Part shown: one piece after another, positions 1,250 to 30,328 of the stretch
Position numbering within the stretch: position 1 is the stretch's first letter
Layout: each line of letters opens with the position of its first letter
The notes under the pieces: model-generated
The model's database searches: none
What the model was told of the DNA's origin: nothing
The model's input: only the letters and a program-made list of their open reading frames with translations
Assembly: GCA_023380635.1 (NCBI GenBank)
Contig: JAMCRP010000002.1
Coordinates: forward strand, 1-40,457
Length of the DNA: 40,457 nucleotides
Source: Patescibacteria group bacterium
GTDB lineage: Bacteria > Patescibacteriota > Microgenomatia > JAMCZE01
Reading direction: 5' to 3'
Made by a program: the position numbers and the translations under genes

Positions 1250-1283
<34 letters not shown>

Positions 1284-1817
1284 AGTGGAGCGTGTGGTTC
1301 AATTCGATTCAAAGCGAAACACCTCACCAGGGCTTGACATGTATCTGCAAGCGCACGGAAACGTGTGATCTACGAGAGTGATACAAAGCTGCTGCATGGC
1401 CGTCTTCAGCTCGTTCCGTGAGGAGTACCCTTTAGTGGGTTAACGAGCGCAACCCTCACTCTTTGTTAAATTATCAAAGAGAACTGCCCCGCCATAAGCG
1501 GGGAGGAAGGCGAGGATGACGTCAGGTCAGCACGGTGCTTATGTCCTGGGCTACACACACCCTACAATGGCGAAAAACAACGGGCTGCAAACCGGTAACG
1601 GCAAGCAAATCTCTGAAATTTCGCCTCAGTTCAGATTGGGGTCTGCAACCTGACCCCATGAAGTCGGAATTGCTAGTAATGGCCAATCAGCAGGTGGCCG
1701 TGAATACGTTCTCGGGTCTTGTACACACCGCCCGTCAAGGCAGCAAAGTCGGCAGTGGCTGATGATCCGCCAGTAAAGGCGGGTTGACGCCAAGGTCGGC
1801 GATGAAGCTTAAGTCGT

Positions 1818-2518
1818 ATCTGTAATGCGACTCTCAGAAGTAATTTTGAGAACAAATTTGGCTATATCGGTGAAACCTAAATTCTGATATTCTTAAGTCA
1901 GTAACAAGGTAATACCGAGGGAACCCCCGATCAAATCGGGGGACACCGTAGAGACTACATGCCAACGCCGCAAATTACGAAAGCTTATCTGCTTGGACTG
2001 TTGCATGACGCAACTGAAAGAAAGACTACTTTCAGAATCGCCACTAAGAGCAACAATTTTGCTAAGGTTCTAGTAAATGGCATTCATTTACTGGGCTTTG
2101 GGGCTTGGTCTTATCGAGAAGGGAAGAACCGCGATCTTTGGATCGTGGAGTTCTCCAAAAAATTTCTTAAAGACACAAGCATTCTTTCTAAAAAGGACAA
2201 AATTAATTATCTTAGGGGTTATTTTGATGCTGAAGGTGGGATTGCTAAAAATTCTAATGTTCGTTACTACTTATATTTTTGCCAAAAAGACAAGGCAGAT
2301 TTGGAAAGGGTAAAGGAATATTTAGAAGAATTAGGTATCAATTGCGGTAAATTGCATAATCCAAGTAAGAAGATCGATCCGGATTATTGGCGATTCTTCA
2401 TAGGAGTTAAATCTTACGAAAAGTTTGCCGAAGTAATCGGATCTTTACATCCAGATAAGAAAAAATATTTGCGGATGAAGATATAGTCCATGCCCCATGA
2501 AAATCGGGGATAAACATG
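1818..2518 (+). mobile_element. group I intron in 16S (between E. coli positions 1498/1499) carrying a homing endonuclease ORF in P8
   Basis: The exon sequence AAGTCGT|AACAAGG is split. P1 pairs exon 1812-1817 with GCGACT 1827-1832, with a U.G wobble at the 5' splice site. An R-like element CCGTAGAGACTACA lies at 1946-1959 and the S element AAGATATAGTCCA at 2478-2490. The last intron nucleotide is G2518. Confidence 0.75.
1959..2486 (+). CDS. LAGLIDADG homing endonuclease (two-motif, monomeric type)
   Basis: 175-aa ORF with motifs AYLLGLLHDAT and NYLRGYFDAEGG. It lies between the intron R and S elements. Confidence 0.85.
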   Translation: MPTPQITKAYLLGLLHDATERKTTFRIATKSNNFAKVLVNGIHLLGFGAWSYREGKNRDLWIVEFSKKFLKDTSILSKKDKINYLRGYFDAEGGIAKNSNVRYYLYFCQKDKADLERVKEYLEELGINCGKLHNPSKKIDPDYWRFFIGVKSYEKFAEVIGSLHPDKKKYLRMKI

Positions 2519-2690
2519 AACAAGGTATCCTTAGCCGAAGCTGAGGATGGATCACCTCCTTTCTAAGAGGTAACGGGTGCAGGCAAACCGAAAGGACTGT
2601 CTGTACAAATCAACTCCCAAGTTTTCTAGAGTTTCTTGGCTAAAAAACAACTCTTTAAAAGATCGGAAGCCGCTTTTCAGAGACCAACAC

Positions 2691-2834
2691 GAAAATTTGA
2701 AATTTGAACTTTGAAATTGTGCCTTCGGCAGAATTCTGCGCAAAGCGCACAATTTGAAATGAGCGTTTGAATAATTTTAAATTGTCTAAATTCAAATTCA
2801 ATTCAAATTTAAAATTGTAAATTCCAAATTGAAA
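2691..2834. repeat. A/T-rich hairpin repeat block (AAATTTGAAATTT / CAAATTGTAAATT family)
   Basis: GAAAATTTGAAATTTGAACTTTGAAATTG ... AATTCAAATTCAATTCAAATTTAAAATTGTAAATTCCAAATTG. It shares its core with blocks at 3850, 19988, 21434, 31031 and 31503. Confidence 0.7.
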
Positions 2835-2861
2835 GTCCACCTGTAAAAGGGTGGCTTTTTT
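2835..2861 (+). terminator. intrinsic terminator downstream of 16S
   Basis: CCACC (2837-2841) pairs with GGTGG (850-854 of that line), followed by T6 (2856-2861). Confidence 0.6.
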
Positions 2862-2900
2862 GTGGTCGAAGTGATGTTTTGATGAGAGGAGAAGATGAGA

Positions 2901-2976
2901 TGGAGGTCTGGGCGGGAATCGCACCCGCGAATAGCGGTTTTGCAGACCGCCGTGTTAGCTACTTCACCACCAGACC
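2901..2976 (-). tRNA. tRNA-Cys (GCA), CCA encoded
   Basis: The reverse complement folds as a cloverleaf: acceptor GGTCTGG/CCAGACC, anticodon loop CTGCAAA, T-arm GCGGG-TGCGATT-CCCGC, discriminator U73 and the A13:A22 mismatch typical of tRNA-Cys. Confidence 0.9.
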
Positions 2977-2989
2977 GGTTTAGAGAGGG

Positions 2990-3061
2990 TGCGCACTGAT
3001 GGAGTCGGACCATCCACTTCTGTCTTATCAGGACAGCGTTCTACCGATGAACTAAATGCGC
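2990..3061 (-). tRNA. tRNA-Ile (GAT)
   Basis: Reverse complement: acceptor GCGCATT/AGTGCGC, D-arm GTTC-ATCGGTA-GAAC, anticodon stem CTGTC/GACAG with loop CTGATAA, T-arm GATGG-TCCGACT-CCATC. No CCA is encoded. Confidence 0.88.
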
Positions 3062-3172
3062 CAGTGTCTAGGATTTTAGCATAATTTCCTTTCCAAACCC
3101 ACAACTTGTCTTCTTACCTTCTCCTTACCTCTCTTTGCTGGAATAAATAGCAGCAGCTTATATAAATGATTT

Positions 3173-3274
3173 ATGGAACGGACGCCGGGGGCATTTTTGG
3201 TCGGTCTGGGAGTGATTTTTGCCGCTCTGGCGGCAGCTTACATATTTTTCAGCGCCCTGGTCGGCCCTAAATAA
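3173..3274 (+). CDS. 33-aa single-TM peptide (below ORF-track cutoff)
   Basis: ATG 3173 to TAA 3272-3274 gives MERTPGAFLVGLGVIFAALAAAYIFFSALVGPK, a clean hydrophobic helix. Its stop lies 3 nt before the next ATG. Confidence 0.3.
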   Translation: MERTPGAFLVGLGVIFAALAAAYIFFSALVGPK

Positions 3275-3277
3275 ATT

Positions 3278-3511
3278 ATGGCGATAAAAAATATTGAGCA
3301 TTGGCCGGGTTGTTCCCATGAACAAATGATTGCGGCCTTTGATAAAGACAGCGAACAACAATTGAAAAATGTTGCGGCTGTTATGGTGGATCTCGACGAA
3401 GCAAAAATAGAGGATATTTCCAGAAGAGTCTCTGCCGCAGCAGGCGGCTATAGCCGAGTATTGGCCCGGCGCCTTGGTCTGACTCCGAGAGTCAGCGAGT
3501 TTGATGATTAA
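3278..3511 (+). CDS. hypothetical 77-aa acidic protein
   Basis: ORF-track entry with an ATG start and no recognisable motif. It lies between 16S and 23S. Confidence 0.5.
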   Translation: MAIKNIEHWPGCSHEQMIAAFDKDSEQQLKNVAAVMVDLDEAKIEDISRRVSAAAGGYSRVLARRLGLTPRVSEFDD

Positions 3512-3558
3512 TAGCTGAGCCTCTTAAAGGCGGAATACCAAGATAGTATAGAGGGTGG

Positions 3559-3587
3559 TTGACAACCTCATTTTAGCCTTGTATAAT
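3559..3587 (+). promoter_or_regulatory. perfect-consensus sigma70 promoter TTGACA-N17-TATAAT (candidate tRNA-Ala/23S/5S promoter)
   Basis: TTGACA 3559-3564, 17-nt spacer, TATAAT 3582-3587. Confidence 0.65.
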
Positions 3588-3707
3588 CTTCTTAATTCAC
3601 AGTTCGGGTGGATTAATTTCTTTGATGCGAAGCTATTCTACATATTCCGTTTATGCCCTGATAAGGGGCCGTCGGCGTCTGTAGACTTTGTATCAAAAGA
3701 ACTTTTG

Positions 3708-3730
3708 AGCCCCGAACGAGGGGCTTTTTT
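3708..3730 (+). terminator. intrinsic-terminator-like hairpin about 135 nt downstream of the 3559 promoter
   Basis: AGCCCC (3708-3713), loop GAACGA, GGGGCT (3720-3725), then T6. Confidence 0.65.
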
Positions 3731-3771
3731 AGTACATTGAGATCGCTAGGATATACAAACTCTACTCTCGG

Positions 3772-3844
3772 GGGCCGCTAGCACATCTGGTAGTGCGCCT
3801 CGTTTGCAACGAGGAGGTGAGGAGTTCGAGTCTCCTGCGGTCCA
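3772..3844 (+). tRNA. tRNA-Ala (TGC)
   Basis: Acceptor GGGCCGC/GCGGTCC with the G3:U70 identity pair, anticodon stem CCTCG/CGAGG with loop TTTGCAA, T-arm AGGAG-TTCGAGT-CTCCT. Confidence 0.9.
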
Positions 3845-3849
3845 CACGC

Positions 3850-3919
3850 GAAATTTGAAATTTGAATTTTGAAATTTGAAAAATTCAATTCAAATTGTAA
3901 ATTTTAAATTTCAAATTGC
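3850..3919. repeat. A/T-rich inverted repeat (about 32-bp imperfect hairpin) of the CAAATTGTAAATT family
   Basis: GAAATTTGAAATTTGAATTTTGAAATTTGAA-AAA-TTCAATTCAAATTGTAAATTTTAAATTTCAAATTGC. Confidence 0.7.
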
Positions 3920-3928
3920 AGCTCTTTG

Positions 3929-3946
3929 CTCTTTGAAAAGTGAATA
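3929..3946 (+). promoter_or_regulatory. boxA-like rRNA leader element (23S copy)
   Basis: CTCTTTGAAAAGTGAATA, preceded by a second GCTCTTTG. It matches the element at 295-312. Confidence 0.4.
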
Positions 3947-4600
3947 GAAGGCCCACAAGCATGCAAGTGCTTGTGGTAAAAATCTTTACAACATTTCAAT
4001 AGTAAAATTTGCTATTGAAAATTATCTACTCATAATGCCAGTGGTGGATGCCTTGGCAGAAAGAACCGATGAAGGACGCTTTCACAGAAGCGATATCGAC
4101 GGCTTGCTCTTCAAAGCTTACCCGTCGGTTTCCGAATGGAGCAATCCAGCCTATTGAAAGATAGGTTATTGCTATCTAAATACGCCGCAAGGCGGAATAG
4201 GGTTGCAAGGGAGACCCCCTGAACTGAAACATCTAAGTAAGGGGAGGAAAAGACAATAATAATGATTCCGGTAGTAGCGGCGAGCGAACTCGGAACAGGC
4301 TAAATTTTGTAGCAATACAAGAAGTTGCGGGGCGCTGTTGGGAGTATGGAGGTTAGAAGAATGCTCTGGAAAGGGCAACCAAAGAGAGTGAAAGTCTCGT
4401 ATTTTAAAACCGAAATACCTCTTGCGATTCCCCAAGTATTACGGGGCACGACACCCTGTGAGAATCCGTCACGTCCAGCGTGATAAGCCTAAATATTCTT
4501 TCTGACCGATAGCGAACTAGTACCGTGAGGGAAAGGTGAAAAGCACCCCGGAAGGGGAGTGAAATAGTTACTGAAACCATTGGCTAACAAACAACTAGAG

Positions 4601-4727
4601 CTTGTCTTTCGGACAAGAATTTTCAAATTCAAAGATACAAGATACAAATTAATAATCAAATTAAAAATTTGAAAGATTATTTGTTTCTTGCTTCTTGTTT
4701 CTTGGAATTTCTCGTCCGGAGGACGAG
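4601..4727 (+). other. helix-25 intervening-sequence-like expansion of 23S
   Basis: About 127 nt lie between CAACTAGAGC and GTGATAGTGTGCC, where E. coli has a roughly 12-nt hairpin. GC clamps CTTGTC/GACAAG and CTCGTCC/GGACGAG flank an A/T-rich core with GATACAAGATACAA and TTGTTTCTTGCTTCTTGTTTCTTG arms. Confidence 0.55.
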
Positions 4728-6104
4728 TGATAGTGTGCCTATTGAAGAATGAACCGGTGAGTTGCTCGATAACCGTTTTGTCTAAGCCACTCTGTGGCGA
4801 AGCGCAGTGAAAGCAAGGTTTAAATGACCAACTTTTACGGTTGTCGGCAGACCCGAAGCCCGGTGAGCTAACCTTGAGCAGGGTGAGCGGTGCCGAAAGG
4901 CACCAGGAGGCCCGAACTCGTCTGGGTTACAAGCCAGTGAGATGACTTGAGGTTAGGGGTTATATGCCTACCGAACCGGGGGATAGCTGGTTCTCCCCGA
5001 AATATATATAGGTATAGCGTTTCATCGTAATGTTACCTGGAGGTAAAGCACTGGATGCCCCACTTTGCGCAAGCAGAGCGGGGTAACCAAACTCTGAATG
5101 CCAGGTAAACTGATGGAGCAGTCAGAAAGCGACGGCTAAGCGCCGTTTTCTAAAGGGAAACAGCCCAGACTCAAAGCTAAGGTCCCTAAATTGGATCTAA
5201 GTTAAAGGAGGTTAAGTTTTTAAAACACCCAGGAGGTTGGCTCAGAAGCAGCCATCCTTTAAAGAAAGCGTAACAGCTCACTGGAATAAAGACTTAGCGC
5301 CGAAAATGATCGGGAATTAAGATCCATACCGAAGCTTGAGATTCCATAGCAATATGGAGTGGTAGGGGAGCGTTCTCTGCTAGAGCGAAGGTGAACCGTA
5401 AGGTTTGCTGGACGAAAGAGAAGTGAGAATGCCGGTATGAGTAGCGTTTAATCCGGTGAGAACCCGGATCACCGAAAGTCCAAGGTTTTCCACACAACGT
5501 CAATCGGTGTGGAGTTAGTCGGCCCTAAGCGTGACCCGCATTGGGATAACGCGATGGATAACAGGTCATTATTCCTGTACAGGGAGTGTATCGTTATCAG
5601 CCAAGGAAGGACAAAGTGGAGATATCCTGGCCCGCCCAACGAACACGGTGGGTCCAAGCGTCGAAATAGTGATGAGCGGTAAACCCCTCAACATGTTTAA
5701 TCGAGGCGCGAATGCTATCCCGCAAGAAATCAAGGAGAGCAGGAAAGTCTTCGTTTTCGAGAAAATTTTCGTGGCGAGATACATTTTTTACCGTACCAAT
5801 AACCAACACAGGTGGACAGGTCGAGCAGACCAAGGTGATCGGAAGAACTATGCTTAAGGAACTCGGCAAAGCAGCTCGGTGTAACTTAGGGAGATACCGT
5901 GCCTTCCGCAAGGGGGGCCGCAGCGAGTGATTGCTAAGCGACTGTTTAACTAAAACACAGCTCTCTGCAAAGCCGAAAGGCAACGTATAGGGGGTGACAC
6001 CTGCCCAGTGCTAGTAGATTAAAGTTCTTGGTGAAGGCCGCAAGGTCTAAGCCTGGGGCATAAGTCCTAGTGAACGGCAGCAGTAACTATAACTGTTCTA
6101 TGGT

Positions 6105-6666
6105 AGACCCAAGTGGGTCCGCTGCCATAGTAAAACTTGACTATATGCTGGGAACTCCTGTAATCTGATACTACTATGGTACATGGTACACATAGTAACA
6201 AAGTAATCAGTAGGGACAATCAGCAGGAAAGACTCGATCCGTGGTGGATTGTGGGATTCGTTGATGGTGAAGGTTGTTTCTCTGTAAGCACTTTTAAAAA
6301 TCGCACTACTAAAAGCGGATTGCAAACTCTTTATGAGTTTGTGATCACTCAAGGGGAGCGGAGTTTGGAAGCTTTAGAGAGAGTAAAAGATTACTTCCAG
6401 TGTGGAGGTGTCTACATTAATCACCGTTACGACAATCACAACTACAATCTTTACCGATATTGTGTCCGAAGACAGGATGATCTTCGAGAGAAAATCATTC
6501 CGTTTTTCAGAAAATATCGACTACAAACAGCAAAACGAGCGCAATTCGACAAATTTTGTAATCGTTTTGAGAATCGAGAATCCTCAGAGACTATACGTCA
6601 AGGCACAAGCGTGTAAACCGCTTGTACAAGATATAGTCCAAACTTCAAATTAACTTGAAGAATTTG
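6105..6666 (+). mobile_element. compact group I intron in 23S at the E. coli L1931 site, carrying a homing endonuclease ORF
   Basis: The exon sequence CTATGGT|AGCGAAG is split. P1 pairs exon 6098-6104 with GCCATAG 6124-6130, with U.G at the splice site. The S element AAGATATAGTCCA lies at 6628-6640 and the terminal G is at 6666. Confidence 0.7.
6176..6616 (+). CDS. LAGLIDADG homing endonuclease (single-motif, I-CreI/I-CeuI-like)
   Basis: 146-aa ORF containing LDPWWIVGFVDGEGCFSV. Confidence 0.85.
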   Translation: MVHGTHSNKVISRDNQQERLDPWWIVGFVDGEGCFSVSTFKNRTTKSGLQTLYEFVITQGERSLEALERVKDYFQCGGVYINHRYDNHNYNLYRYCVRRQDDLREKIIPFFRKYRLQTAKRAQFDKFCNRFENRESSETIRQGTSV

Positions 6667-6673
6667 AGCGAAG

Positions 6674-6708
<35 letters not shown>

Positions 6709-7140
6709 TAGAACGACTTAGCGACTGTCTTAAGCATAGATCCGGCGAAATTGAAATGGCTGTGAAGATGCGGCCTAGTCATACTTGGACAAAAAGACCC
6801 CGTGGAGCTTTACTGCAACTTGGCATTGTTGAGCTTATTTTCATTGTCTAGCAATAGGTGGGAGCGCAAGCGTCAATGTAAGACCACTCTTGAAGATGAG
6901 GGAGACTAATCACTTTCCCATTAAAAAGTTGGGAGTGAGACAGTGTCTGGCGGGCAGTTTAACTGGGGAGGTTGACTCCTAAATTGTAACGGAGTCGTAC
7001 AAAGGTACTCTAGCTTCGGATGGAAATCGAAGTGATAGCGCAAACGCAAAAGAGTGCTTGACTGCGAGACTTACAGGTCGAGCAGAAACGAAAGTTGGTG
7101 TTAGTGATCTGGTCTGTGCTTACTGGTAAGCACGGAGCTT

Positions 7141-7173
<33 letters not shown>

Positions 7174-7686
7174 GATCGCATCCAAGCGTCCACAGCGACG
7201 ATGCGGTTTGGCACCTCGATGTCGGCTCATCCTATCCTGGGGCTGAAGTAGGTCCCAAGGGTCCGGCTGTTCGCCGGTTAAAAGGGTACGCGAGCTGGGT
7301 TCAGAGCGTCGTAAGACAGCTCGGCCTCTATCCAGTATGACCGTTGGAATTTTGAGAGGAGTTCTCCACAGTACGAGAGGACCTGGAGGAACGAATCCCT
7401 GGTGTGCCAGTTGTCCCGTCAGGGGCACCGCTGGGTAGCTACATTCGGATCGGATAAGCGCTGAAAGCATCTAAGTGCCAAGCCGACCTCAAGATTAGAA
7501 TTCCATTCCGGCGCAAGCCGGAGAGAGATCCGTGGAAGACTACCACGTATATAGGCTTCGAGTGTAAGACGGGTAACCGTTTCAGCTTAGAAGTACTAAT
7601 GATCGATTGTAGATTTTTACGCTGTAAAGAAAAACCTTCTATTCGCTTTTCAGAGAGCAATTAATTAGCTCGAGATTAGAAATTTC

Positions 7687-7800
7687 TCGGTCTCTGGAGC
7701 GGTCTGGAACCACTCCTTCCCATTCCGAACAGGGATGTGAAACGGGCCAGCGCTGACAATACTTGAGGGGCAACTCTCTGGGAAGATAAGTCGAGGCCGG
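7687..7800 (+). rRNA. rrf: 5S rRNA
   Basis: Helix I pairs TCGGTCTC with GAGGCCGG. Conserved CCCATTCCGAACAGGGATGTGAAAC and a GGGAAGATAAGTCGAGGCC tail are present. Confidence 0.9.
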
Positions 7801-7826
7801 GGAATTTTTAGCCTCGAGTTTTTTTA
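7791..7826 (+). terminator. rRNA operon terminator overlapping the 5S 3' end
   Basis: TCGAGGC (7791-7797) pairs with GCCTCGA (7811-7817), followed by T7. Confidence 0.6.
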
Positions 7827-7856: not shown

Positions 7857-8798
7857 TTGTGTTATCATTATCCAGTGAAACTACGCTGGATTTTTTTGTG
7901 CCTAGTTTTGATCACTGCCCCTGTTTTAGTCTGGTTTCGATTTATAGCTCCGGTAGGCTCTGATACAAATTTACAAATAATTTCCTTCCAAAATGACACC
8001 CCGAAACTGCTGGCAGCCAGCAGACTTCGCGAGCAGGGATATGTGCGTAGCAGTACCGCTTTAGAACTAATTTTAGACAAAAACATTGCCGCAGGCGGGT
8101 ATAATCTTTCCAAATCCATGAATGTTTTTGAAATAGCGAAGGCACTGCGAAATCCTGAATACCTGTGGGTGACAGTGGCGCCAGGCATGCGTAAAGAGCA
8201 AATTGCCGAGAAGATGAAGGATAAGTTTAATTGGACACAGGCGGACCTGGATGGGTTTTTAAGCTTTCCGGAGGGAGAATATTTCCCGGATACCTATTTA
8301 ATCAGTAAAACCGACGGGGGAAAGGCGGCAGGTCAGAAAATGTTTGACCACTTTAACGAAAAATTTGCCCCACTGGCGCCGGAGTTTTTAGCGCAAAATA
8401 TTAAAAATGACACGGCCATTAAAATCGCGTCGCTGATACAAAGAGAAGCGGGCGGGAAGGATGACATGCCCTTAATTGCGGGAATTATTTGGAACCGGTT
8501 ACTCAAAGGCATGTTGCTACAGATAGACGCCTCCAACCAGTACGCGAAAGGTTCCAGCGGTAATTGGTGGCCGCCGGTGTATGGCAGCGATTTGAAGGAC
8601 GACAACCCCTACAATCTTTATATCTATAAAGGCTTGCCGCCGACAGCCATTTCAAATCCCGGACTGCCGGCCATCGAGGCCGTCTTAAACCCCACAGAAA
8701 CCGACTGCCTTTTTTACTTGCACGACAAAGCCAAACAAATCCACTGCAGCGTGACTTACGAAGAACATCTGGAGAATATTAAGAAGTATCTGAATTAA
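7857..8798 (+). CDS. mltG: endolytic murein transglycosylase MltG (YceG-like)
   Basis: N-terminal TM helix; GLPPTAISNPGLPAIEAVLNP and FYLHDKAKQIHCSVTYEEHLENIKKY match YceG-family hallmarks. The start is uncertain (TTG 7857 or in-frame GTG 7875). Confidence 0.85.
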   Translation: MCYHYPVKLRWIFLCLVLITAPVLVWFRFIAPVGSDTNLQIISFQNDTPKLLAASRLREQGYVRSSTALELILDKNIAAGGYNLSKSMNVFEIAKALRNPEYLWVTVAPGMRKEQIAEKMKDKFNWTQADLDGFLSFPEGEYFPDTYLISKTDGGKAAGQKMFDHFNEKFAPLAPEFLAQNIKNDTAIKIASLIQREAGGKDDMPLIAGIIWNRLLKGMLLQIDASNQYAKGSSGNWWPPVYGSDLKDDNPYNLYIYKGLPPTAISNPGLPAIEAVLNPTETDCLFYLHDKAKQIHCSVTYEEHLENIKKYLN

Positions 8799-22640: not shown

Positions 22641-23012
22641 GTGGACAAGATCCAGAGAAATGCCCGACTCTTGGAACGTCTCATTAAGTTTTCTCAAAAG
22701 GTTATCTCCTTGTGCAGAAAGTTGCCTCGAACATCGGTTAATCAACGTTTGGTACCTCAAGTAGCGGCTAGTTCTGATTCCATGCCAGCCAACTACGCCG
22801 AGGCCTGTGCAGCGGAAAGTAACGCCGACTTTGTTCATAAAATCAGGATCGTTATGAAAGAAGCCAACGAAACCCGAGTTCATTTGCGACTGTTATATGT
22901 GGCCAATCCTGACTTCCAGAGGGAAATCGTCGAGCTCGGGAAAGAATCAACGGAGTACATTAAGATCTTCTTTACAATCGAGAAAAAGTGCCGCCAGAAA
23001 AAGCCCTCTTAA
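22641..23012 (+). CDS. four-helix-bundle protein (23S rRNA IVS protein / Avd-like family)
   Basis: QVAASSDSMPANYAEACAAESNADFVHKIRIVMKEANETRVHLRLL fits the family pattern (R/A)S..SI.aNiaEg....s..DF...l.ia.gS..E. GTG start. Confidence 0.8.
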   Translation: MDKIQRNARLLERLIKFSQKVISLCRKLPRTSVNQRLVPQVAASSDSMPANYAEACAAESNADFVHKIRIVMKEANETRVHLRLLYVANPDFQREIVELGKESTEYIKIFFTIEKKCRQKKPS

Positions 23013-23052: not shown

Positions 23053-23061
23053 TACTCCTAG

Positions 23062-23132
23062 TGGACCCGCGGGGAATTGAACCCCGAACTCGTCAATGCG
23101 AATGACGCGGTATACCGTTTACCTACGGGCCC
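23062..23132 (-). tRNA. tRNA-Ala (CGC)
   Basis: Reverse complement: acceptor GGGCCCG/CGGGTCC with G3:U70, D-arm GGTA-AACGGTA-TACC, anticodon loop TTCGCAT, T-arm CGGGG-TTCAATT-CCCCG. Confidence 0.85.
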
Positions 23133-23256: not shown

Positions 23257-23745
23257 ATGCCAGCCACTCCTGTTTATGGCCGCCGGGTTCTGACCCCGCA
23301 AACGATTTTTACCTATCTGGTTTTGGCGGTAGTGGCTTACGCCCTGGCGGTCTATATTTTTGCTAAAAATTCCGGGCGGCTGGCTTTACCGGGAGTAGGT
23401 CTTTCCCTTTCACAACCAGTCACAATATCTCTTAATGCACAAAATAATTCCGGGGAAACCGGAACGGCAACTTTGATGCCTGTCAACGACGGCACCCAAA
23501 CCCAGGTAACCATTAATTTGCAAAATGCCCCAAGCACTCCTCAGCCGGCTCACATTCATATCGGTGTCTGTCCCAATCCGGGAGCAGTGAAGTACCCGCT
23601 TAGCGATGTCGTTTCCGGACAATCGACCACGGTGATTAACGCGACGCTGGAAGATTTTAAAAATATGGAACCGCTGGCAATTAATGTCCACCAGTCGCCA
23701 AACGATATTCAGACTTATGTCGCCTGCGGAGATATCAAGTTTTAA
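23257..23745 (+). CDS. membrane-anchored CHRD-like domain protein
   Basis: N-terminal TM helix (IFTYLVLAVVAYALAVYIF). PAHIHIGVCPNPGAVKYPL and AINVHQSPND resemble the CHRD aHIH.G motif. The functional call is tentative. Confidence 0.7.
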   Translation: MPATPVYGRRVLTPQTIFTYLVLAVVAYALAVYIFAKNSGRLALPGVGLSLSQPVTISLNAQNNSGETGTATLMPVNDGTQTQVTINLQNAPSTPQPAHIHIGVCPNPGAVKYPLSDVVSGQSTTVINATLEDFKNMEPLAINVHQSPNDIQTYVACGDIKF

Positions 23746-24242: not shown

Positions 24243-24313
24243 GGGCCCGTAGGCTACCGGTAGACTGGTTCCATGGCATGGAACAGAAAGGGGTTCAATT
24301 CCCCTCGGGTCCA
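24243..24313 (+). tRNA. tRNA-Ala (GGC), weak D-stem
   Basis: Acceptor GGGCCCG/CGGGTCC with G3:U70, anticodon stem GTTCC/GGAAC with loop ATGGCAT, T-arm AGGGG-TTCAATT-CCCCT. The D-stem GGCT/GACT pairs poorly. Confidence 0.7.
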
Positions 24314-24382
24314 CAACAAAATTTTTCCTCCTTCTTCGGTAACTTTTTTCCTGCAATTTATCGCTAAAAAGCGGCCTTACTC

Positions 24383-24411
24383 TTGACATTTTTTCACGGA
24401 GGGGTATAAAT
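24383..24411 (+). promoter_or_regulatory. sigma70 promoter TTGACA-N16-TATAAA upstream of the giant gene
   Basis: TTGACA 24383-24388 and TATAAA 24405-24410. Confidence 0.55.
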
Positions 24412-24418
24412 ATATATA

Positions 24419-24448
24419 GTCGTAAAATGTCGTAATAAGTCGTGATAA
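24419..24448 (+). promoter_or_regulatory. three exact-period 10-nt direct repeats GTCGTAAAAT / GTCGTAATAA / GTCGTGATAA (operator-like)
   Basis: Head-to-tail repeats start about 8 nt after the -10 hexamer, at the predicted transcription start. Confidence 0.45.
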
Positions 24449-24584
24449 AGCTTAGCCTGAGAAGCTAAATCCCATTCCGAACGATAAATTAATTTCCACT
24501 GAAGAATTAATTAATCAGGCTAAAGCCAGGGGTTTTCTTTTTGGTGCCGGCAAACCGGTTTTTCTGCTTCATTACTACACTCAA

Positions 24585-27500
24585 TTGGGTCTGATTCCTA
24601 ATGCCGTCCGGATGCGGCTTGAAGGAGTCAAGGGACACACTGTCGGTTGCTATCCAGAAACAGTGGTGGAAACACTTTTAAAAATTCAAGAACTGCGCCA
24701 AGGCGGGTTGGTGATGGAGCAGATTAAGTCCAAAATTCTGGCAAACACTTCGGAAACGGATAATAACTTAATTTCCCTCGAAGAGCTAATCAACCGGGCC
24801 AGGGTGGCCGGTTTTATTTTTGGAGCCGGCAAACCCAGTTTCCTGCTGCACTATTACACTCAGTTGGGAATCTTACCTAAAGCGGTCAGACTCCGTCTAA
24901 ACGGTATCAAAGGACATACAGTAGGCTGCTATCCGGCGGAAGCAGTAGAGACCCTGCTAAAAATCCAGAAACTGCGCCGGGAAGGAGTGGCGGTCAAGGA
25001 TATCGCCCAAACGCTGGGCAACGAAGGGATTAAGCCGGCAGCCCGGCGGGAGGAAGCCGAAACTTTGGAAATTCTCCGGGTCGCGGCCCAAGCCCCGGTC
25101 CGCTATCAAGCCGAAACCGAAGCCGGCAGGCTGGCCGGATATTTCCAACCCCCACCGCCAGAGAGACAAGAAACAAGATACAAGATACAAGAAACAAAGA
25201 AAACACAAGATGCAAAAGAAACAAAAGAGAAGAGAAGCTGGAAAAGCTTTGCTTACACTCTTCCGGCAGTTTTAGCTACTATCCTTCTGCTGTTAACTAC
25301 CGGCCTGAATATATATATTACTTCCTATCAGAAGAAAGTGGCTTCTGACCGGAATTTGCAGGCGGTCTTGGCCGAAAGCAGCAGCCAAAACTTTTTAGAC
25401 ATCCGGGCGGATACCGATGTTTCCGGAAGACTGACCGTGTGGGGGAAAGATGTCTTAACAGAAGCGACTTTAGCTTCTTCTTCCCCCTACCTTAGCAACT
25501 TAAACCAAAGCCTCAGCACGACGGCCACTCCTACTTTTGCCAACCTTACCTTAACCGCCGGCAAGATTGTCCTGGAAGACAAAACGCAAACTTTAAAAAA
25601 CAAGACCATTGATGGCGGGAGTAATACCCTGACAAATATCTCAAACTCCTCACTTTCTAACTCCAAAGTCACCGTGACGGCCGGCACCAACCTGACCGGG
25701 GGCGGGGATGTCGTCTTAGGTGACAGCACCACGATTGGTTTGAAGGATAACATTAACATTGCTTCTTTGTCGGCTACTTCAGTTTTTGTTAACGGTGACG
25801 CCACGGTGGCCGGGAATTTGCTGCCGGGAACAAATAGTGCCAACGATTTAGGCAGCAGTGATCATTACTGGCACAGTCTCTATGTTAATAATATCTACGG
25901 CCCGCCGGTGGGGTCTTTTTGGTTCTGGCAAAGGGCTGCCGGGGCAGTGGCTCCGACGAACATCACTGATGATCTGCTTTTGGGCAGTACAGCCACAGCC
26001 ACGGCCCAAATTGCTCTGAACGCGACCAACGGGAACATCACGACCAAGGGGACGATAAATGGGCTGGGAATAACCTCGGCCACTATTGACACGGGGACGT
26101 GGCAGGCAACGGCTATCGGAACCCAATATGGCGGGACCGGCCAAAACTGGAGCAGTGTGGCCCAGGGCAACCTGCCCTACTTTAGCGCTTCAGGGACCAT
26201 GGGGACTTTGGCGCCGGACACGGTCAACAAGCTCTTAACGACCGGAGGCGCGGGGGCTAACCCCAGCTGGCAAAGTTTAGTCAATTTGCTTTCAGCCGGA
26301 ACCGACATTTCTTTTGGAGGCAGCGAAGTGGTCACGGTTAACGACACTGCCACTTTAAACACCGTCACCGGCCGGGGGGCAACCACCGCTAACGCCATTA
26401 CCCTAACCGGAGCGGGAACGGCTTTAACCGTGTCTAATAACGCCACGGTTTCTGGGACTTTAGGGGTTGGGGGAGAAGCCAGTATCAGTGGTAAACTAAT
26501 TTTAGGGTCAAACACCGCCCAGATTAACGCGACCAGTAATAATGATTTGCAGCTGGGCTTTCAAAACACCGGCACCGTCCGGTTTCTAAATACCAGTAAC
26601 TACCTTGACGCCAGCGGCAATTTTTACCTTTCCGGCAACCTCATTGCCAGCGGGACAACCGTCGGTTTCTGGCAGCGCACTGCCGGTTCCCTGGCTCCGA
26701 TTAATATTACTGACGACTTGAATTTAGGCGCGACCGGTACCAGTTCGGCTCTGGTCCATTTTGGCGGCACTTCCGGCCAAGGGAACTTTATCAACACCGG
26801 CGCCGGGGTGGGCATCGGGACTACCGACACCACCGAAATGCTTAATGTCAACGGGAGGCTTTTGTTAAGTCAGGTGAGTGCTCCCGGAGTGTTAACCGAC
26901 AAACTCTACAATTTAGGCGGCGCTTTAACCTGGGCGGGCAACGCTGTTTGTACCGCGGCCGGCAACTGCGCCGGGACAGCCAGTGCCTTAGGCGGGTCAG
27001 GGGGAGCGGGGTATATTTCCAAATGGTCTGGTACTTACAGTCTAACCACAAGTCCGCTTTATGTGGATGGTTCCGGCCAAGTGGGGATCGGGACGACCAG
27101 TCCGGCAGCCCAGTTTGCCGTCGGGGCCAATTCCGGCTTAACCATTAACGGGACCGGGGACATTGTCGCCCGGACTTTTAACGGCAATACCATCGCCACA
27201 GGGTCAGCGACTTTTACCATTCCGGCCAGCGGGACGGCAGCTTTAGGCACCGGGACTGCTAATCAGGTAGCCTACTGGTCAGGCACCAACACTTTAACTT
27301 CCGAAGCCCAGTTAGCTCCTTCCCGGGGAGGCACGGGGGCTGACTGGAGTTTGGTAGCCCAGGGATCGCTGCCATATTTCTCGGGAACCGGCACTCTTAG
27401 CACTTTGGGAGCGGGGACTGCTAACCAGGTCTTAACTACCGGTGGGGGCGGGGCAGACCCGGGTTGGACCAACATAGCTTCTTTAGTGACTCAAACCGGA

Positions 27501-29450
27501 AACATCTCTATCACCGGAACTCAGACTTTAAGCGTGAACACCGTCATGAACCCGACTTTTAGCACTTCGGTCACGACACCGCTAATTTACGGGGGAACCG
27601 GAGCTGGTTCTACCTTAACTTTAGCCGGGACTTCCAACGGCTCGCCGGTTAACGCTTATGTTTTGCTTAACCCGGCCGGTCAGGGCAATGTGGGCATCGG
27701 GACGACTAACCCTGTAACAACACTCCATGTATACAATGCCGGCGGAAATGACAACGGCGATGTTCAAATTTCAGGTACCACGAACCCGTCTATCGCTCTC
27801 GTAGACACCGGTGTGCAGGGATATGGCCTTTACATAGACACGAGTGACAGTAATAAGCTTAAGTTAACTAATGCGAATGCCGGCGTGTCCGCTGGCACAC
27901 CACTTATGACGATCACCAGCGCTGGCAATGTTGGCATCGGAACGACGGGACCAAGTAAATTACTTGATGTATATAAATCTCAAAGCAGTGTCACCGACGA
28001 GTCGCAAGCGGCAGCGGCTTTCGGTGTCACTACGACGGGAGGTATCTATGGATATATCACTCCTAATCAGACTGGAAAAACAGTCACATTCGCTGGAGTT
28101 CGAGGCGGTCAGGCTAACGACGTATCGCTGCTCTTTAACCCAGCTGGCGGCAACGTCGGCATCGGGACGACGGGACCTTTGGGCAAGTTAGATGTCGGCA
28201 ACCAAATGTATGTTCAGTCAAACGGAACCATCGAGAGTCCAGGCAGCAAGAACACGACTAACGGAATGATTGAAACATACTATAATGCTGGTGACAGATA
28301 TGGTTTAGGTCAACTTTCCAATGGAGTAACAGCTTTGTACACATCCGATGCTTACAGCCCCAGCTCAATACAGTTTGGAAGAATAGACAGCAGCAACAAT
28401 TTCATCTCTCTGATGGATATTACCCATGGTGGCAATGTCGGCATCGGGACGACGAGTCCGGGCTATCTTTTAACCGTTAACTCCAGCACCCCAGGCTGCA
28501 ACGGGTGTACCGCCTGGACAAACTACTCTGATATCCGCCTAAAGGAAAACATTGCTTCCGTCTCCGGGGGAATTTTAGACAAAATTTTGCAACTAAACCC
28601 GGTGACTTTTAACTACAACGACACCTACTATACCCAAACGGGTTATTCCCGCCCTGATGGCCAAACACCAACTTACACTGGCTTTATTGCCCAGCAGTTG
28701 CAAACGATTTTTCCGGAAATGGTTTCCACCTCCAGTAATGGTTATCTTGACACCAACCTTTCCAACTTGCAGATCTATCTGGTTAAAGGTATGCAGGAAC
28801 AACAGGGAGAAATTGCTTCCCAGTCGGCCGATATTGCCACCATGTCAGCCACACTTTCGGCCTGGAATGATTTGCTAGGCACCCCATCCGCCTCTCTGGC
28901 CGACTCGGTGGCCCACCTGGACGGCTTATCAGCCGATATTTCTACTCTCATGGCGGATAACCTGCAGATTAAGTCCGATATCGAGCTTCTGAAAGAGCAA
29001 ATGGCCACAGTTTCCGCTAATTTGGCCCAGGTGCAAAGTCAAACCGCTTCCAATTCCGCTTCTCTGGCTTCCTTAAGTCCCTTAAGTAACTTAAGCATCT
29101 TAAGTGATCTGGAAGTCTCGACGGTTTCGGCTTCCTTTGCCAACTTTTCTGATACCTTAAAAGTGGTCGGCAAAACGGACCTGGCTGATACTAACATCGG
29201 GGGCAGCTTGACCGTGGGGTTGCTGCACTTTGACGATTTGAAAGCGGAAATCTCTTCCTTAACCGGCACCGTCACCGTTAACAGTAATTTGCAGGTGGCC
29301 GGAGATGCCGAGGTTATGGGCAGCGCGACCGTTTCCGGCCAGCTGGCAGTGCGCGGAGGTATTGTCGTTAAAGATGCCGTTTCCGGAGAAAATTATTGTC
29401 TCCGGGTGGAAAACGGGGTGATGACCAACACTAAGGGAGACTGCAAATGA
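24585..29450 (+). CDS. giant membrane-anchored protein: 2x MerR-like HTH, one TM helix, tail-fibre-like repeats, peptidase S74 intramolecular chaperone domain, C-terminal extension
   Basis: 1621-aa ORF. The module LIS(T/L)EELIN...FLLHYYTQLG(L/I)(I/L)P.AVR.RL.G.KGHTVGCYP...VETLLKIQ.LR occurs twice. TM helix FAYTLPAVLATILLLLTTGLNIYI. Six G(N/Q)VGIGTTxP motifs. S74 signature YSDIRLKENI...LNPVTFNY...GFIAQQLQTIFPEMV. Homology continues in frame upstream to 24456, so the true start is unresolved. Confidence 0.9.
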   Translation: MGLIPNAVRMRLEGVKGHTVGCYPETVVETLLKIQELRQGGLVMEQIKSKILANTSETDNNLISLEELINRARVAGFIFGAGKPSFLLHYYTQLGILPKAVRLRLNGIKGHTVGCYPAEAVETLLKIQKLRREGVAVKDIAQTLGNEGIKPAARREEAETLEILRVAAQAPVRYQAETEAGRLAGYFQPPPPERQETRYKIQETKKTQDAKETKEKRSWKSFAYTLPAVLATILLLLTTGLNIYITSYQKKVASDRNLQAVLAESSSQNFLDIRADTDVSGRLTVWGKDVLTEATLASSSPYLSNLNQSLSTTATPTFANLTLTAGKIVLEDKTQTLKNKTIDGGSNTLTNISNSSLSNSKVTVTAGTNLTGGGDVVLGDSTTIGLKDNINIASLSATSVFVNGDATVAGNLLPGTNSANDLGSSDHYWHSLYVNNIYGPPVGSFWFWQRAAGAVAPTNITDDLLLGSTATATAQIALNATNGNITTKGTINGLGITSATIDTGTWQATAIGTQYGGTGQNWSSVAQGNLPYFSASGTMGTLAPDTVNKLLTTGGAGANPSWQSLVNLLSAGTDISFGGSEVVTVNDTATLNTVTGRGATTANAITLTGAGTALTVSNNATVSGTLGVGGEASISGKLILGSNTAQINATSNNDLQLGFQNTGTVRFLNTSNYLDASGNFYLSGNLIASGTTVGFWQRTAGSLAPINITDDLNLGATGTSSALVHFGGTSGQGNFINTGAGVGIGTTDTTEMLNVNGRLLLSQVSAPGVLTDKLYNLGGALTWAGNAVCTAAGNCAGTASALGGSGGAGYISKWSGTYSLTTSPLYVDGSGQVGIGTTSPAAQFAVGANSGLTINGTGDIVARTFNGNTIATGSATFTIPASGTAALGTGTANQVAYWSGTNTLTSEAQLAPSRGGTGADWSLVAQGSLPYFSGTGTLSTLGAGTANQVLTTGGGGADPGWTNIASLVTQTGNISITGTQTLSVNTVMNPTFSTSVTTPLIYGGTGAGSTLTLAGTSNGSPVNAYVLLNPAGQGNVGIGTTNPVTTLHVYNAGGNDNGDVQISGTTNPSIALVDTGVQGYGLYIDTSDSNKLKLTNANAGVSAGTPLMTITSAGNVGIGTTGPSKLLDVYKSQSSVTDESQAAAAFGVTTTGGIYGYITPNQTGKTVTFAGVRGGQANDVSLLFNPAGGNVGIGTTGPLGKLDVGNQMYVQSNGTIESPGSKNTTNGMIETYYNAGDRYGLGQLSNGVTALYTSDAYSPSSIQFGRIDSSNNFISLMDITHGGNVGIGTTSPGYLLTVNSSTPGCNGCTAWTNYSDIRLKENIASVSGGILDKILQLNPVTFNYNDTYYTQTGYSRPDGQTPTYTGFIAQQLQTIFPEMVSTSSNGYLDTNLSNLQIYLVKGMQEQQGEIASQSADIATMSATLSAWNDLLGTPSASLADSVAHLDGLSADISTLMADNLQIKSDIELLKEQMATVSANLAQVQSQTASNSASLASLSPLSNLSILSDLEVSTVSASFANFSDTLKVVGKTDLADTNIGGSLTVGLLHFDDLKAEISSLTGTVTVNSNLQVAGDAEVMGSATVSGQLAVRGGIVVKDAVSGENYCLRVENGVMTNTKGDCK

Positions 29451-29563: not shown

Positions 29564-30328
29564 ATGCCAAAAGTTTTGGCCCTGGTTTTGTTGGTAGTCA
29601 TGCTTTTCGCAGCTACCGGGCCGGCATTGGCGGCCTCGTTCGAAGCCGATATTGCTTCCTCATATCCGATTGCTGATAGCCAGGCAGTCTCCGGCGACAT
29701 TTTGATTGCCACAAACCAGGGAATTTCCCGGGCTTCTACCGAATATGACCAGAGACTGTTTGGCGTTTTGACGGATAAAGCGATCATGGTTTTCCGCTCG
29801 GCCGATCCCAATAACAAGCCTGTTTCCCGTTCCGGAATTGCCGTGGTGAATGTGACTAACGCCAATGGTCCGATTTCTAAGGGCGACTACATCACCTCCT
29901 CCGCGACTCCCGGCAAAGGAGAAAAAGCAACCATCTCCGGTTATGTGGTGGGCCAGGCGCTGGAAGACATGACCGGTTCCAGCGGCCAGATATCGGTGGC
30001 TGTCAGAGTTGAATACGCCGAAATCAGTAATGCCCGGACGCTCTCCAGACTGGTCGACTATGTGACCGCCGATGTTTTTCGCAATGTCAAAGATCAGGGT
30101 CAGTTATCAATGGTGTTGCGCTACATTATTGCCGGCTTAATTATGCTGACTTCGATTGCTATTTCCTTTGTCACTTTTTCCCGTTCCGTCCCTAAAGCCA
30201 TTGAAGCGATTGGTCGTAATCCCTTGGCCAGGACAAGTATCATGATCTCTTTAAGCATGTCCATAGGACTGGTAATCGCGACAATTGGATTAGGTTTAGC
30301 GGCAAGTATTGTAATCCTGAGGATTTAA
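29564..30328 (+). CDS. secreted beta-rich domain fused to an ATP synthase c-subunit-like helical hairpin (no ion-binding carboxylate)
   Basis: Signal peptide MPKVLALVLLVVMLFAATGPALA|AS. The C-terminal IIAGLIMLTSIAISFVTFSRSVPKAIEAIGRNPLARTSIMISLSMSIGLVIATIGLGLAASIVILRI aligns with c subunits (A-V/I-E-x-I-x-R-Q/N-P loop). It is the first gene of the atp cluster. Confidence 0.8.
   Translation: MPKVLALVLLVVMLFAATGPALAASFEADIASSYPIADSQAVSGDILIATNQGISRASTEYDQRLFGVLTDKAIMVFRSADPNNKPVSRSGIAVVNVTNANGPISKGDYITSSATPGKGEKATISGYVVGQALEDMTGSSGQISVAVRVEYAEISNARTLSRLVDYVTADVFRNVKDQGQLSMVLRYIIAGLIMLTSIAISFVTFSRSVPKAIEAIGRNPLARTSIMISLSMSIGLVIATIGLGLAASIVILRI

Follow-up and report, generated by a model that had tools for sequence, protein, structure and literature searches.

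Can a single polypeptide connect the surface of an episymbiotic bacterium to its genome? Bacteria of the Candidate Phyla Radiation (CPR, or Patescibacteria) have tiny genomes with few recognisable regulators, and how they sense and respond to contact with their hosts is an open question. We address it here for one gene of a Patescibacteria group bacterium of the Microgenomatia, in a stretch of 40,457 nucleotides (contig JAMCRP010000002.1 of assembly GCA_023380635.1, positions 1 to 40,457 of the forward strand) that was analysed at its full length and that we call the window. The gene, hereafter the fibre gene, is on the + strand; numbered from an ATT at 24474 and ending at 29450, it would encode 1,658 amino acids (aa), with two tandem modules resembling the DNA-binding domain of MerR, a charged tether, one transmembrane helix and a giant fibre-like region. 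An earlier note, made from the sequence alone, had proposed that this product links cytoplasmic DNA binding to a surface fibre. The architecture is real and recurs in other genomes, and it is apparently undescribed.

Two tandem MerR-like modules at the N-terminus

The N-terminal region consists of two copies of one module, module 1 at 24474–24749 (+; aa 1–92) and module 2 at 24756–25031 (+; aa 95–186), which score 100.1 and 93.6 bits, respectively, with a hidden Markov model (HMM) of the family. They correspond to the two tandem copies of about 90 aa described in the earlier note, which are real, with their limits adjusted from 24489–24720 and 24770–25010. The copies share 55 of 85 residues (61–65% identity) and 65% of their DNA sequence, with 22, 15 and 51 mismatches at the first, second and third codon positions. 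This distribution of mismatches indicates purifying selection on both copies, and both the likeness of the modules and their coding pattern are far beyond chance.

Several comparisons relate the modules to the MerR family. Pfam MerR_1 matches the whole N-terminus with 35.3 bits (cut-off, 21.6) in two stretches, the better of which falls on module 2, and the Pfam check proposed in the earlier note assigned no non-DNA-binding fold. A profile of 73 module sequences (A1) matches the solved MerR structure 4ua1 (E 5.6e-7) and, after it, the solved structures of a MerR-family regulator, TnrA, GlnR and CadR. AlphaFold2, run on the alignment of modules, predicts with a mean local confidence (predicted local distance difference test, pLDDT) of 91.6 a topology b-a1-a2-b-b-a3-a4, in which b-b is a two-stranded wing. 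When this model of the module was compared by Foldseek with the PDB, ranks 1 to 21 were all MerR-family DNA-binding domains (probability 0.87–1.0, template-modelling score about 0.6), including CvkR and GlnR, MtaN, TnrA, NmlR, SoxR and CueR, the last six in complex with DNA; the E-values were weak, as expected for a domain of 94 residues. In a model of the two modules together, both domains are confident and module 2 adopts the same fold as module 1. By sequence profile and predicted fold, then, the module is a winged helix-turn-helix (HTH) of MerR type.

The remainder of the MerR layout seen in the earlier note did not hold. The dimerising coiled coil (a5) of MerR proteins is missing from the model: a4 of module 1 is followed by a four-residue linker of low confidence and then by module 2, and residues 185–219, after module 2, have pLDDT below 50 with only a six-residue helix and no equivalent of a long coiled coil. 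Likewise, Pfam and NCBIfam scans of the protein retrieved no MerR effector-binding domain (metal, drug or redox). Because the coiled-coil helix and the effector domain are both absent, the modules are, as predicted, minimal MerR-like domains of the BldC/TnrA type. Specific to the family is an insertion rich in Gly, GxxFGxGxP, that separates a1 from a2. The two modules are basic (isoelectric points of 9.2 and 9.5), as are those of the family, whose mean net charge is +5.9, and two residues are nearly invariant in the family: Y34, in the RYY motif of the recognition helix, and R46, in the wing.

A single membrane anchor and a giant fibre

The modules are followed by a K/E/T/Q-rich tether at 25032–25247 (+; aa 187–258), with 16 K+R and 12 D+E in its 72 residues, which is predicted to be disordered over aa 187–219, the part included in the AlphaFold model (modelling stopped before aa 220–258). 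Next comes the only hydrophobic segment of the protein (mean Kyte-Doolittle hydropathy above 1.6 over 19 residues), FAYTLPAVLATILLLLTTGLNIYI, at 25248–25319 (+; aa 259–282), a predicted single transmembrane helix and signal anchor. These are the charged spacer and the one membrane helix of the earlier note, whose estimate of about 1370 aa beyond the helix becomes 1,376 aa.

Charge bias, composition and the lack of a signal peptide point to a type II single-pass protein with its N-terminus in the cytoplasm and its C-terminus outside, the orientation proposed previously. A folded, basic N-terminal part of 258 aa precedes the sole transmembrane helix, and the ectodomain is acidic, with an isoelectric point of 4.6. 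Among the proteins of the family, the 15 residues flanking the helix contain on average 2.54 K+R on the N side versus 1.75 on the C side; 58 proteins have more on the N side and 26 more on the C side. Placement of the fibre outside the cell is further suggested by two related fibres without HTH (P0004 and P0009), because they start with a hydrophobic N-terminus resembling a signal peptide.

The fibre proper, at 25320–28526 (+; aa 283–1351, about 1,070 aa), is rich in T, G, S and N, contains repeats of the GNVGIGTT type and is collinear with the fibres of the relatives P0035 and P0003. It leads into a C-terminal region at 28527–29450 (+), collinear with the C-terminus of P0035, which we interpret as an intramolecular chaperone made up of a Peptidase_S74 domain (PF13884; 28527–28724, E 7.8e-15), a coiled-coil-like segment and a C-terminal domain that extends to the stop codon. 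The Peptidase_S74 domain opens at NY|SDIRLK (aa 1352), and Ser1352 and Lys1357 have the spacing of the Ser/Lys(+5) dyad that carries out trimerisation-dependent self-cleavage in phage endosialidases and in MYRF (PMC3742443). PHROG tail-fibre families match aa 998–1461, so that the tail-fibre likeness of the C-terminal part, already recognised in the earlier note, is borne out by both kinds of match.

A large CPR family with variable ectodomains

To place the fibre gene we used exhaustive phmmer/HMMER searches (E ≤ 1e-3), counting cluster representatives at 50% identity. At least 220 representatives carry a related module, and the survey of distribution that had been suggested thus indicates that the architecture recurs. 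This depth of search was needed: a word-indexed homolog search with the N-terminus alone gave no match, and a single N-terminal protein as a query retrieved no related locus from genome contigs or metagenome contigs; looking up the database gene model of the fibre gene by exact match likewise gave no contig. The sole return obtained with a four-sequence alignment (L086) was rejected as a spurious match to KGHTVGCY in a non-coding frame. All family members with a named source are from CPR bacteria, in line with the setting assumed in the earlier note, and the closest named relatives of the window protein are from Microgenomates and Daviesbacteria metagenome-assembled genomes. No module relatives were found in IMG/VR viral contigs.

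The giant fibre does not define the family and is one of many ectodomains. A typical member has 180–230 aa (about 220), with a module at aa 2–90, one transmembrane helix at about 100–180 and a short ectodomain. Of 149 representatives scanned, 111 have one clear transmembrane helix after the module and at least 15 aa beyond it. A minority of members have 500–3,068 aa; about a dozen reach one to three thousand, several of them with Peptidase_S74. For instance, P0035 (1,861 aa) combines MerR_1, a transmembrane helix, BNR and Peptidase_S74, P0154 (1,585 aa) combines MerR_1 and Peptidase_S74, and P0081 (2,216 aa) has been named automatically [quoted passage not shown]. Two Daviesbacteria giants, P0002 and P0003, have their fibre in common with the window protein, joined to a more canonical HTH_17/MerR N-terminus and a transmembrane helix. 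Judged from these sequences, the window gene belongs, as one of the giants, to a large family of proteins consisting of a module, a single transmembrane helix and a variable ectodomain. Databases carry only automatic names for its members ("MerR family transcriptional regulator", "hypothetical protein"), and we found no published description of MerR, HTH, tail-fibre or membrane-tethered proteins of this kind in CPR bacteria, a provisional result from an incomplete search of the literature.

Tandem modules occur in about ten clusters. The two copies are mutually closest in the window protein (61% identity) and in P0012 (57%), whereas those of P0010 are 42% identical to each other versus 53% and 48% to the module of P0035; these relationships indicate that the module was duplicated more than once. 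A further candidate for a tandem-module protein, in L080, was rejected because its wing carries a large insertion and it has only one module.

One subfamily could be followed further by a motif scan of genomes, which yielded 80 loci. All those with a named lineage are from Patescibacteria, including WWE3 (among them the complete genome CP006914), Saccharibacteria-labelled bins, Nomurabacteria and unclassified Patescibacteria. The WWE3-type ortholog of about 220 aa (L003–L079 and L081), with a module, a transmembrane helix and an ectodomain of about 95 aa, is widespread in WWE3 and in other Patescibacteria. In 66 of the 80 loci the gene that follows, in the same orientation, encodes a polytopic Wzy_C-like/TPR membrane protein of about 750 aa, and the ortholog is divergent from DprA, ComM, an ArsR-type HTH gene, ComEA and ComEC.

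Comparison of orthologous loci separates a constant part from a changing one. In L001 (P0035), L002 (P0010) and L088 (P0154), the family gene occupies one common position, 3' of divergent Phosphorylase and GH57 genes, and in L001 and L002 the locus reaches the same two small genes and atp operon that follow the window gene. L083 (P0011) and L085 (P0017) have an upstream 23S_rRNA_IVP gene in common with the window, where it lies at 22641–23012. The product at the orthologous position ranges from 118 aa (L083) and 394 aa (L002) to 1,585–1,861 aa (L088 and L001). The gene in L083 (P0011) is complete and encodes a module and a transmembrane helix only, in 118 aa; its module is the nearest relative of module 1. 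P0035 and the window protein are collinear over the module, the linker, the transmembrane helix and the first 240 aa or so of the fibre, and again over the last 430 aa or so, including Peptidase_S74, and differ in the middle. At the level of sequence, the N-terminal unit is thus the conserved part and the ectodomain the variable part.

Phased repeats at the promoter of the fibre gene

Reading the sequence, we noted a promoter-like pair at 24383–24410 (+), with a perfect -35 box TTGACA (24383–24388), a 16-nt spacer and a -10-like TATAAA (24405–24410); the spacer holds a single, non-palindromic TCACGG at 24394–24399. This pair was missed by a consensus promoter scan, for which the second hexamer had to have T as its sixth base; the scan called instead TTTTCA/TTCACG with a TATAGT ending at 24420. 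The string CTTGACAT is invariant in an alignment with the leaders of L085 and L083.

Downstream, at about the predicted transcription start, Tandem Repeats Finder identified three phased direct repeats of 10 bp (period 10, 3.1 copies), GTCGTAAAAT, GTCGTAATAA and GTCGTGATAA, at 24419–24448 (+). These repeats, which the earlier note had singled out as a binding site to be tried, are conserved as an element. The leader of L085 reads ATCGTGATGG GTCGTGAAGT GTCGTGATAT GAGCGTGAA ATG and that of L083 GTCAAAGGAG GTCGTAGGAA GTCATGG, and in all three loci phased GTCGT repeats stand at an equal distance from the conserved -35 box; the modules encoded in L083 and L085, which hold the two closest orthologs, are only 46–53% identical to those of the window. 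An exact GTCGT-N5-GTCGT is found in the 40-kb window only at the leader of the fibre gene and, among the 85 loci compared, only at the leader of L085. Among family genes that are more distant, the leaders have TCACGGgagaTCACGG in L089, TTACCGTGACGGTAA in L090 and CCCGTCACGGG in L082, and TCACGG/CCGTGA lies in the spacer between the -35 and -10 boxes in the window, in L087 and in a second promoter of L083. We therefore consider the repeats at 24419–24448 to be a candidate operator for the encoded modules.

The motif is also enriched in the family. We counted every 5-mer (512 after collapsing of strands) in 13 family leaders from outside the WWE3 subfamily, a count begun after the repeats had been noticed, and CGTGA/TCACG ranked first, with 12 occurrences versus 1.08 expected (Poisson, 2e-9); none of 5,000 shuffles reached 12. 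It is present in 7 of the 13 leaders, compared with 9 of 70 upstream regions of other genes in the same loci. The leaders of the L001/L088/L002 subclade have, in place of CGTGA, palindromes of the TTTGC type and repeats.

Other features were seen in these leaders. In L087, at about 1870–1995 (the leader of P0019), AATATACAAAT occurs twice in direct and once in inverted orientation, and a perfect 16-bp palindrome, ACTCGCGCGCGCGAGT, lies some 15 nt before the ATG. In L083 (1001–1448), P0011 is followed by a GGTCGTGTGAAAGGTGCGTGTAAAA element and then by the second promoter (TTGACT...TAATCT), whose spacer contains CCGTGA; the contig ends there, and the fibre may be encoded apart from the module and the transmembrane helix. 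In the window, the minimum free energy (MFE) fold shows a small hairpin at 24449–24466 (+), AGCTT / agcctgag / AAGCT, 7 nt before the start codon. A leader hairpin with the loop YCUGAGA is also present in the MFE folds of L001 (about 7975–8000) and L002 (about 7975–7995), with stems that differ and yet stay complementary (AGCUU/AAGCU, AAUCAG/CUGAUU and GGGAG/CUCCC in the window, L001 and L002, respectively). The folding energies have non-significant z-scores, so that the hairpin is suggested only by covariation in three sequences, and Rfam gave no match at the leader of the fibre gene.

A putative membrane-tethered regulator and its alternatives

What might such a protein do? We propose, giving the idea an even chance of being right, that it is a membrane-tethered type II protein with a ToxR-like layout, whose modules bind DNA and act on its own promoter and leader in autoregulation. 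The modules would bind at the inner face of the membrane, as in a one-component system, and at least one of their targets would be the gene's own promoter and leader, with TCACGG in the spacer and the three 10-bp phased GTCGT(G/A)A repeats. Modules arranged head to tail would occupy repeats also arranged head to tail and one helical turn apart, in a BldC-like manner. The tether of about 70 aa would let membrane-bound modules reach the DNA, helped by what are probably very small cells. Transcription of the gene would in this way be under feedback from the quantity of fibre in the membrane and possibly from its state of assembly.

Several points weigh against this proposal. DNA binding by the modules, a transcriptional output and the sensing of host contact are all putative. 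The topology is supported indirectly, and by a positive-inside bias of modest size. The model of the two modules has a predicted template-modelling score of 0.42, so that their mutual orientation is not reliable. The family consensus of the recognition helix, NRLRYYTK, includes two Arg and one Lys that the window protein (FLLHYYTQ) has lost; SoxR likewise has His at the equivalent Arg of its recognition helix. Module 1 requires a non-canonical ATT start, itself deduced from comparison (see below). The repeats lie in a probably transcribed leader and may act at the RNA level. Finally, the enrichment of CGTGA comes from a small sample of 13 leaders and from an analysis prompted by repeats already seen; a single locus, L085, supplies 4 of the 12 counts, and the motif is absent from 6 of the 13 leaders. 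The upstream regions of the WWE3 group of about 220 aa are without a repeat operator; what they show is -10 boxes and, some 19 nt ahead of the ATG in 16 of 74 loci, a TCTGCCC box.

Two known proteins speak for a different function, in which the module would be a cytoplasmic protein-binding adaptor that docks the membrane protein to a partner in the cytoplasm, for example one of the cytoskeleton, of secretion or of glycosylation. In RodZ, which is laid out alike, MreB binding requires the HTH (PMC3599482); CbpM, which is MerR-like and was solved with the CbpA J-domain (3ucs), appears at rank 33 of the Foldseek search. Both count against DNA binding by the modules, and the pairing of the members of about 220 aa with the Wzy_C-like/TPR protein suggests a protein complex; the missing basic residues of the window's recognition helix also favour an adaptor. 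We nevertheless consider it unlikely. The best 21 structural matches are without exception genuine DNA-binding domains, the modules are basic throughout and keep Y34 and R46 nearly invariant, a conserved and family-enriched DNA motif lies at the promoters of family genes, and the HTH of RodZ is of XRE type, not of MerR type. Even if the modules were adaptors, they would be a conserved cytoplasmic handle, informative about how CPR fibres are assembled and anchored.

The modules might also bind DNA in an architectural role, tethering the chromosome or incoming DNA under the fibre in the manner of RacA or Xis. MerR-like winged helices occur in DNA-architectural proteins without a transcriptional role, among them RacA, a chromosome anchor, and Xis (PMC5859096). 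The ortholog of about 220 aa adjoins ComEC, ComEA, ComM and DprA in WWE3 genomes, and fibres assembled as trimers would bring a number of DNA-binding modules together in one spot of the membrane. The competence genes, however, neighbour one subfamily only, and the conserved motifs are precisely at the promoters and transcription starts of the genes themselves, as is typical of operators; an architectural role thus appears improbable.

Returning to autoregulation by a tethered protein, trimerisation driven by Peptidase_S74 outside the cell would gather three N-terminal tails, and with them six modules. Speculatively, the trimerisation or the engagement state of the fibre would then modulate DNA binding, and occupancy of the DNA would reflect the quantity of assembled fibre in the membrane or its engagement. 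A stronger version, in which the fibre would sense contact or assembly, and trimerisation, host engagement or tension would alter the clustering of the tails or their proteolytic release, and hence the occupancy of phased CGTGA-type operators, we regard as decidedly improbable. If true, it would constitute a direct link, in one polypeptide, through which contact at the surface of episymbiotic CPR bacteria acts on transcription, and the approximately 220 related clusters would be a CPR-specific repertoire of transducers from the surface to DNA.

A probable ATT start codon

The extent of module 1 depends on where translation begins. The frame of the fibre gene is open from 24456, after a TAG at 24453–24455, to the stop codon at 29448–29450, and before 24585 it contains no ATG, GTG or TTG. 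In the mechanical list of open reading frames (ORFs) the start is TTG 24585, and in the gene model of the database (P0001, 1612 aa) it is ATG 24612; both lie inside module 1. The alignment of ortholog starts points to an ATT at 24474–24476 (+), since four orthologs begin exactly there: MDQEKLIS (ATG, L083), MEPLTKFIT (ATG, L085), MIDQNLIS (TTG, L001) and MTDGKLIS (GTG, L002). In the family alignment the window reads IPNDKLIS, and its ATT coincides with the initiator Met of relatives such as MDQEKLIS and MTDGKLIS. Module 1 also shows coding-type evolution upstream of the annotated starts: the 35 codons before TTG 24585, compared with module 2, comprise 13 identical, 12 synonymous and 10 non-synonymous codons. 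From these comparisons, translation probably starts at ATT 24474; the coincidence with ortholog starts indicates that the gene caller shortened the window gene, and the predicted N-terminal peptide is MPNDKLISTEELINQAK, or its fMet form. The ATT may also be an ATG misread through a sequencing error. No Shine-Dalgarno-like motif is visible 5' of the window ORFs of at least 100 aa, and the start context therefore adds nothing on the ATT. Several ORFs in the mechanical list of the window open with TTG or GTG.

Could module 1 instead be untranslated, as a decaying 5' remnant or through an assembly error or mutation at the ATT, leaving a protein that starts at TTG 24585 or ATG 24612 with one complete module? 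The missing conventional start codons and the database model favour it, ATT is a rare initiator, and the one module of the ortholog P0035 finds its best alignment with module 2. Yet the 35 upstream codons show coding-type substitutions without a frameshift or stop, and a start at 24585 or 24612 would leave a shortened, unfoldable half-domain. Given, besides, that two of the four orthologs starting at the ATT position use non-ATG codons and that tandem modules with normal starts exist elsewhere, we judge an untranslated module 1 very improbable.

Genomic context

The window is core chromosome: it contains an rRNA operon, Rho, a LysM-M23 peptidase, the 23S_rRNA_IVP gene and two tRNA-Ala genes, and the fibre gene is followed by two genes for small membrane proteins and then by the atp delta, alpha, gamma and beta genes. 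That the gene derives from a prophage or phage tail fibre, its MerR-like domain being an excisionase-type remnant with no cellular role, is suggested by the Peptidase_S74 and PHROG tail-fibre matches and by the MerR-like fold of Xis/excisionase proteins (PMC5859096), but we discount it almost entirely, given neighbours such as the rRNA operon, Rho, tRNAs and ATP synthase with no phage genes, a position that is syntenic in several CPR genomes, the lack of the module pattern in IMG/VR viral contigs, and a transmembrane anchor between domain and fibre that is not a feature of virion fibres.

Some other observations concern the neighbouring genes. The tRNA-Ala genes are at 23061–23132 (-) and 24243–24314 (+), with anticodons CGC and GGC, respectively, and between them, just 5' of the fibre gene, lies a gene for a small CHRD-like secreted protein (23257–23745). 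A protein of about 254 aa is encoded at 29564–30328, directly 5' of the atp genes, and also in L001 (17273–18037) and L002 (13975–14769); it has an N-terminus resembling a signal peptide, two C-terminal hydrophobic helices and no Pfam match. A likeness of its C-terminal hairpin to the ATPase c subunit was considered and dropped for lack of Pfam support. The rRNA operon (371–7802) shows oddities of the CPR type: it has a 23S gene (4021–7619) about 670 nt longer than the Rfam model, with a LAGLIDADG_1 endonuclease ORF (6176–6616) within it; between the 16S and 23S genes are a LAGLIDADG_3 ORF (1959–2486) and minus-strand tRNA-Cys and tRNA-Ile genes.

Significance and comparison with known systems

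The family joins a DNA-binding-type domain to variable surface domains, from about 95 aa to tail-fibre-like regions of three thousand aa, in one membrane-spanning chain, and it would be a simple candidate for a link between cell surface and genome. Its automatic annotation is doubly misleading: automatic calls shorten such genes, as at the ATT start, and automatic names hide the membrane and fibre architecture. Suitable reagents for testing the proposal are a soluble domain of about 190 aa and the 30-bp phased repeat with its CGTGA core.

The closest parallel for the modules is BldC of Streptomyces, founder of the BldC family, a MerR-like domain without coiled coil that forms head-to-tail multimers on direct repeats (PMC5859096). 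Here, too, there is a winged HTH alone, without coiled coil or effector domain, and the modules, head to tail in one chain, would bind phased direct repeats at the promoter. However, BldC is a soluble protein of 68 aa, whereas the window protein, of 1,658 aa, is membrane-anchored and has a giant ectodomain and two modules in cis. In its sequence the module is nearer to MerR, TnrA and GlnR, and neither the profile matches to solved structures at E ≤ 1 nor the 50 listed Foldseek matches included a BldC chain. The BldC repeat is AATTxxxxC, whereas those found here are of 10 bp with a GTCGT/CGTGA core. In the MerR family the typical operator is a palindrome in an over-long spacer of 19–20 bp between the -35 and -10 boxes; the promoter-like pair seen here has a 16-nt spacer with a single TCACGG, and the direct repeats lie at about the transcription start.

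In phage fibres, the Peptidase_S74 chaperone drives trimerisation and then cuts itself off. The window protein resembles phage tail fibres and endosialidases in this domain, with its SDxRxK motif, in its PHROG similarity and in its repetitive Gly/Thr/Ser-rich fibre, and differs from them in that its gene is chromosomal and syntenic and that its product has a transmembrane anchor and cytoplasmic HTH modules, as predicted. A second parallel is the eukaryotic MYRF/MrfA family of membrane-bound transcription factors, which likewise combines a DNA-binding-type domain, a transmembrane helix and the Peptidase_S74 dyad in a type II protein, with trimerisation implied (PMC3742443). In MYRF, though, Peptidase_S74 lies between the DNA-binding domain and the transmembrane helix, in the cytoplasm, and self-cleavage frees a trimer of the DNA-binding domain, which is of the Ndt80 type (PMC3742443). 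In the window protein it is at the far C-terminus, across the membrane; therefore its cleavage cannot release the modules.

In overall layout, RodZ also has a cytoplasmic N-terminal HTH, one transmembrane helix and an extracytoplasmic domain, with the HTH binding MreB (PMC3599482), but this HTH is of XRE type, and the window protein shows neither sequence or profile similarity to RodZ nor its C-terminal domain. ToxR and CadC agree with the window protein in layout, with an N-terminal cytoplasmic winged helix, a linker, a single transmembrane helix and an extracytoplasmic C-terminus, an orientation that is predicted for the window protein. They differ from it in that their winged helices are of the OmpR/PhoB type, for which the Pfam scan of the window protein gave no Trans_reg_C match, and in that their periplasmic domains are small sensors, in place of a fibre of trimerising type with more than 1,000 aa. 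In all, judged on its sequence features, the protein is best classed with the membrane-tethered one-component regulators, as a putative member built on a minimal MerR-like domain.

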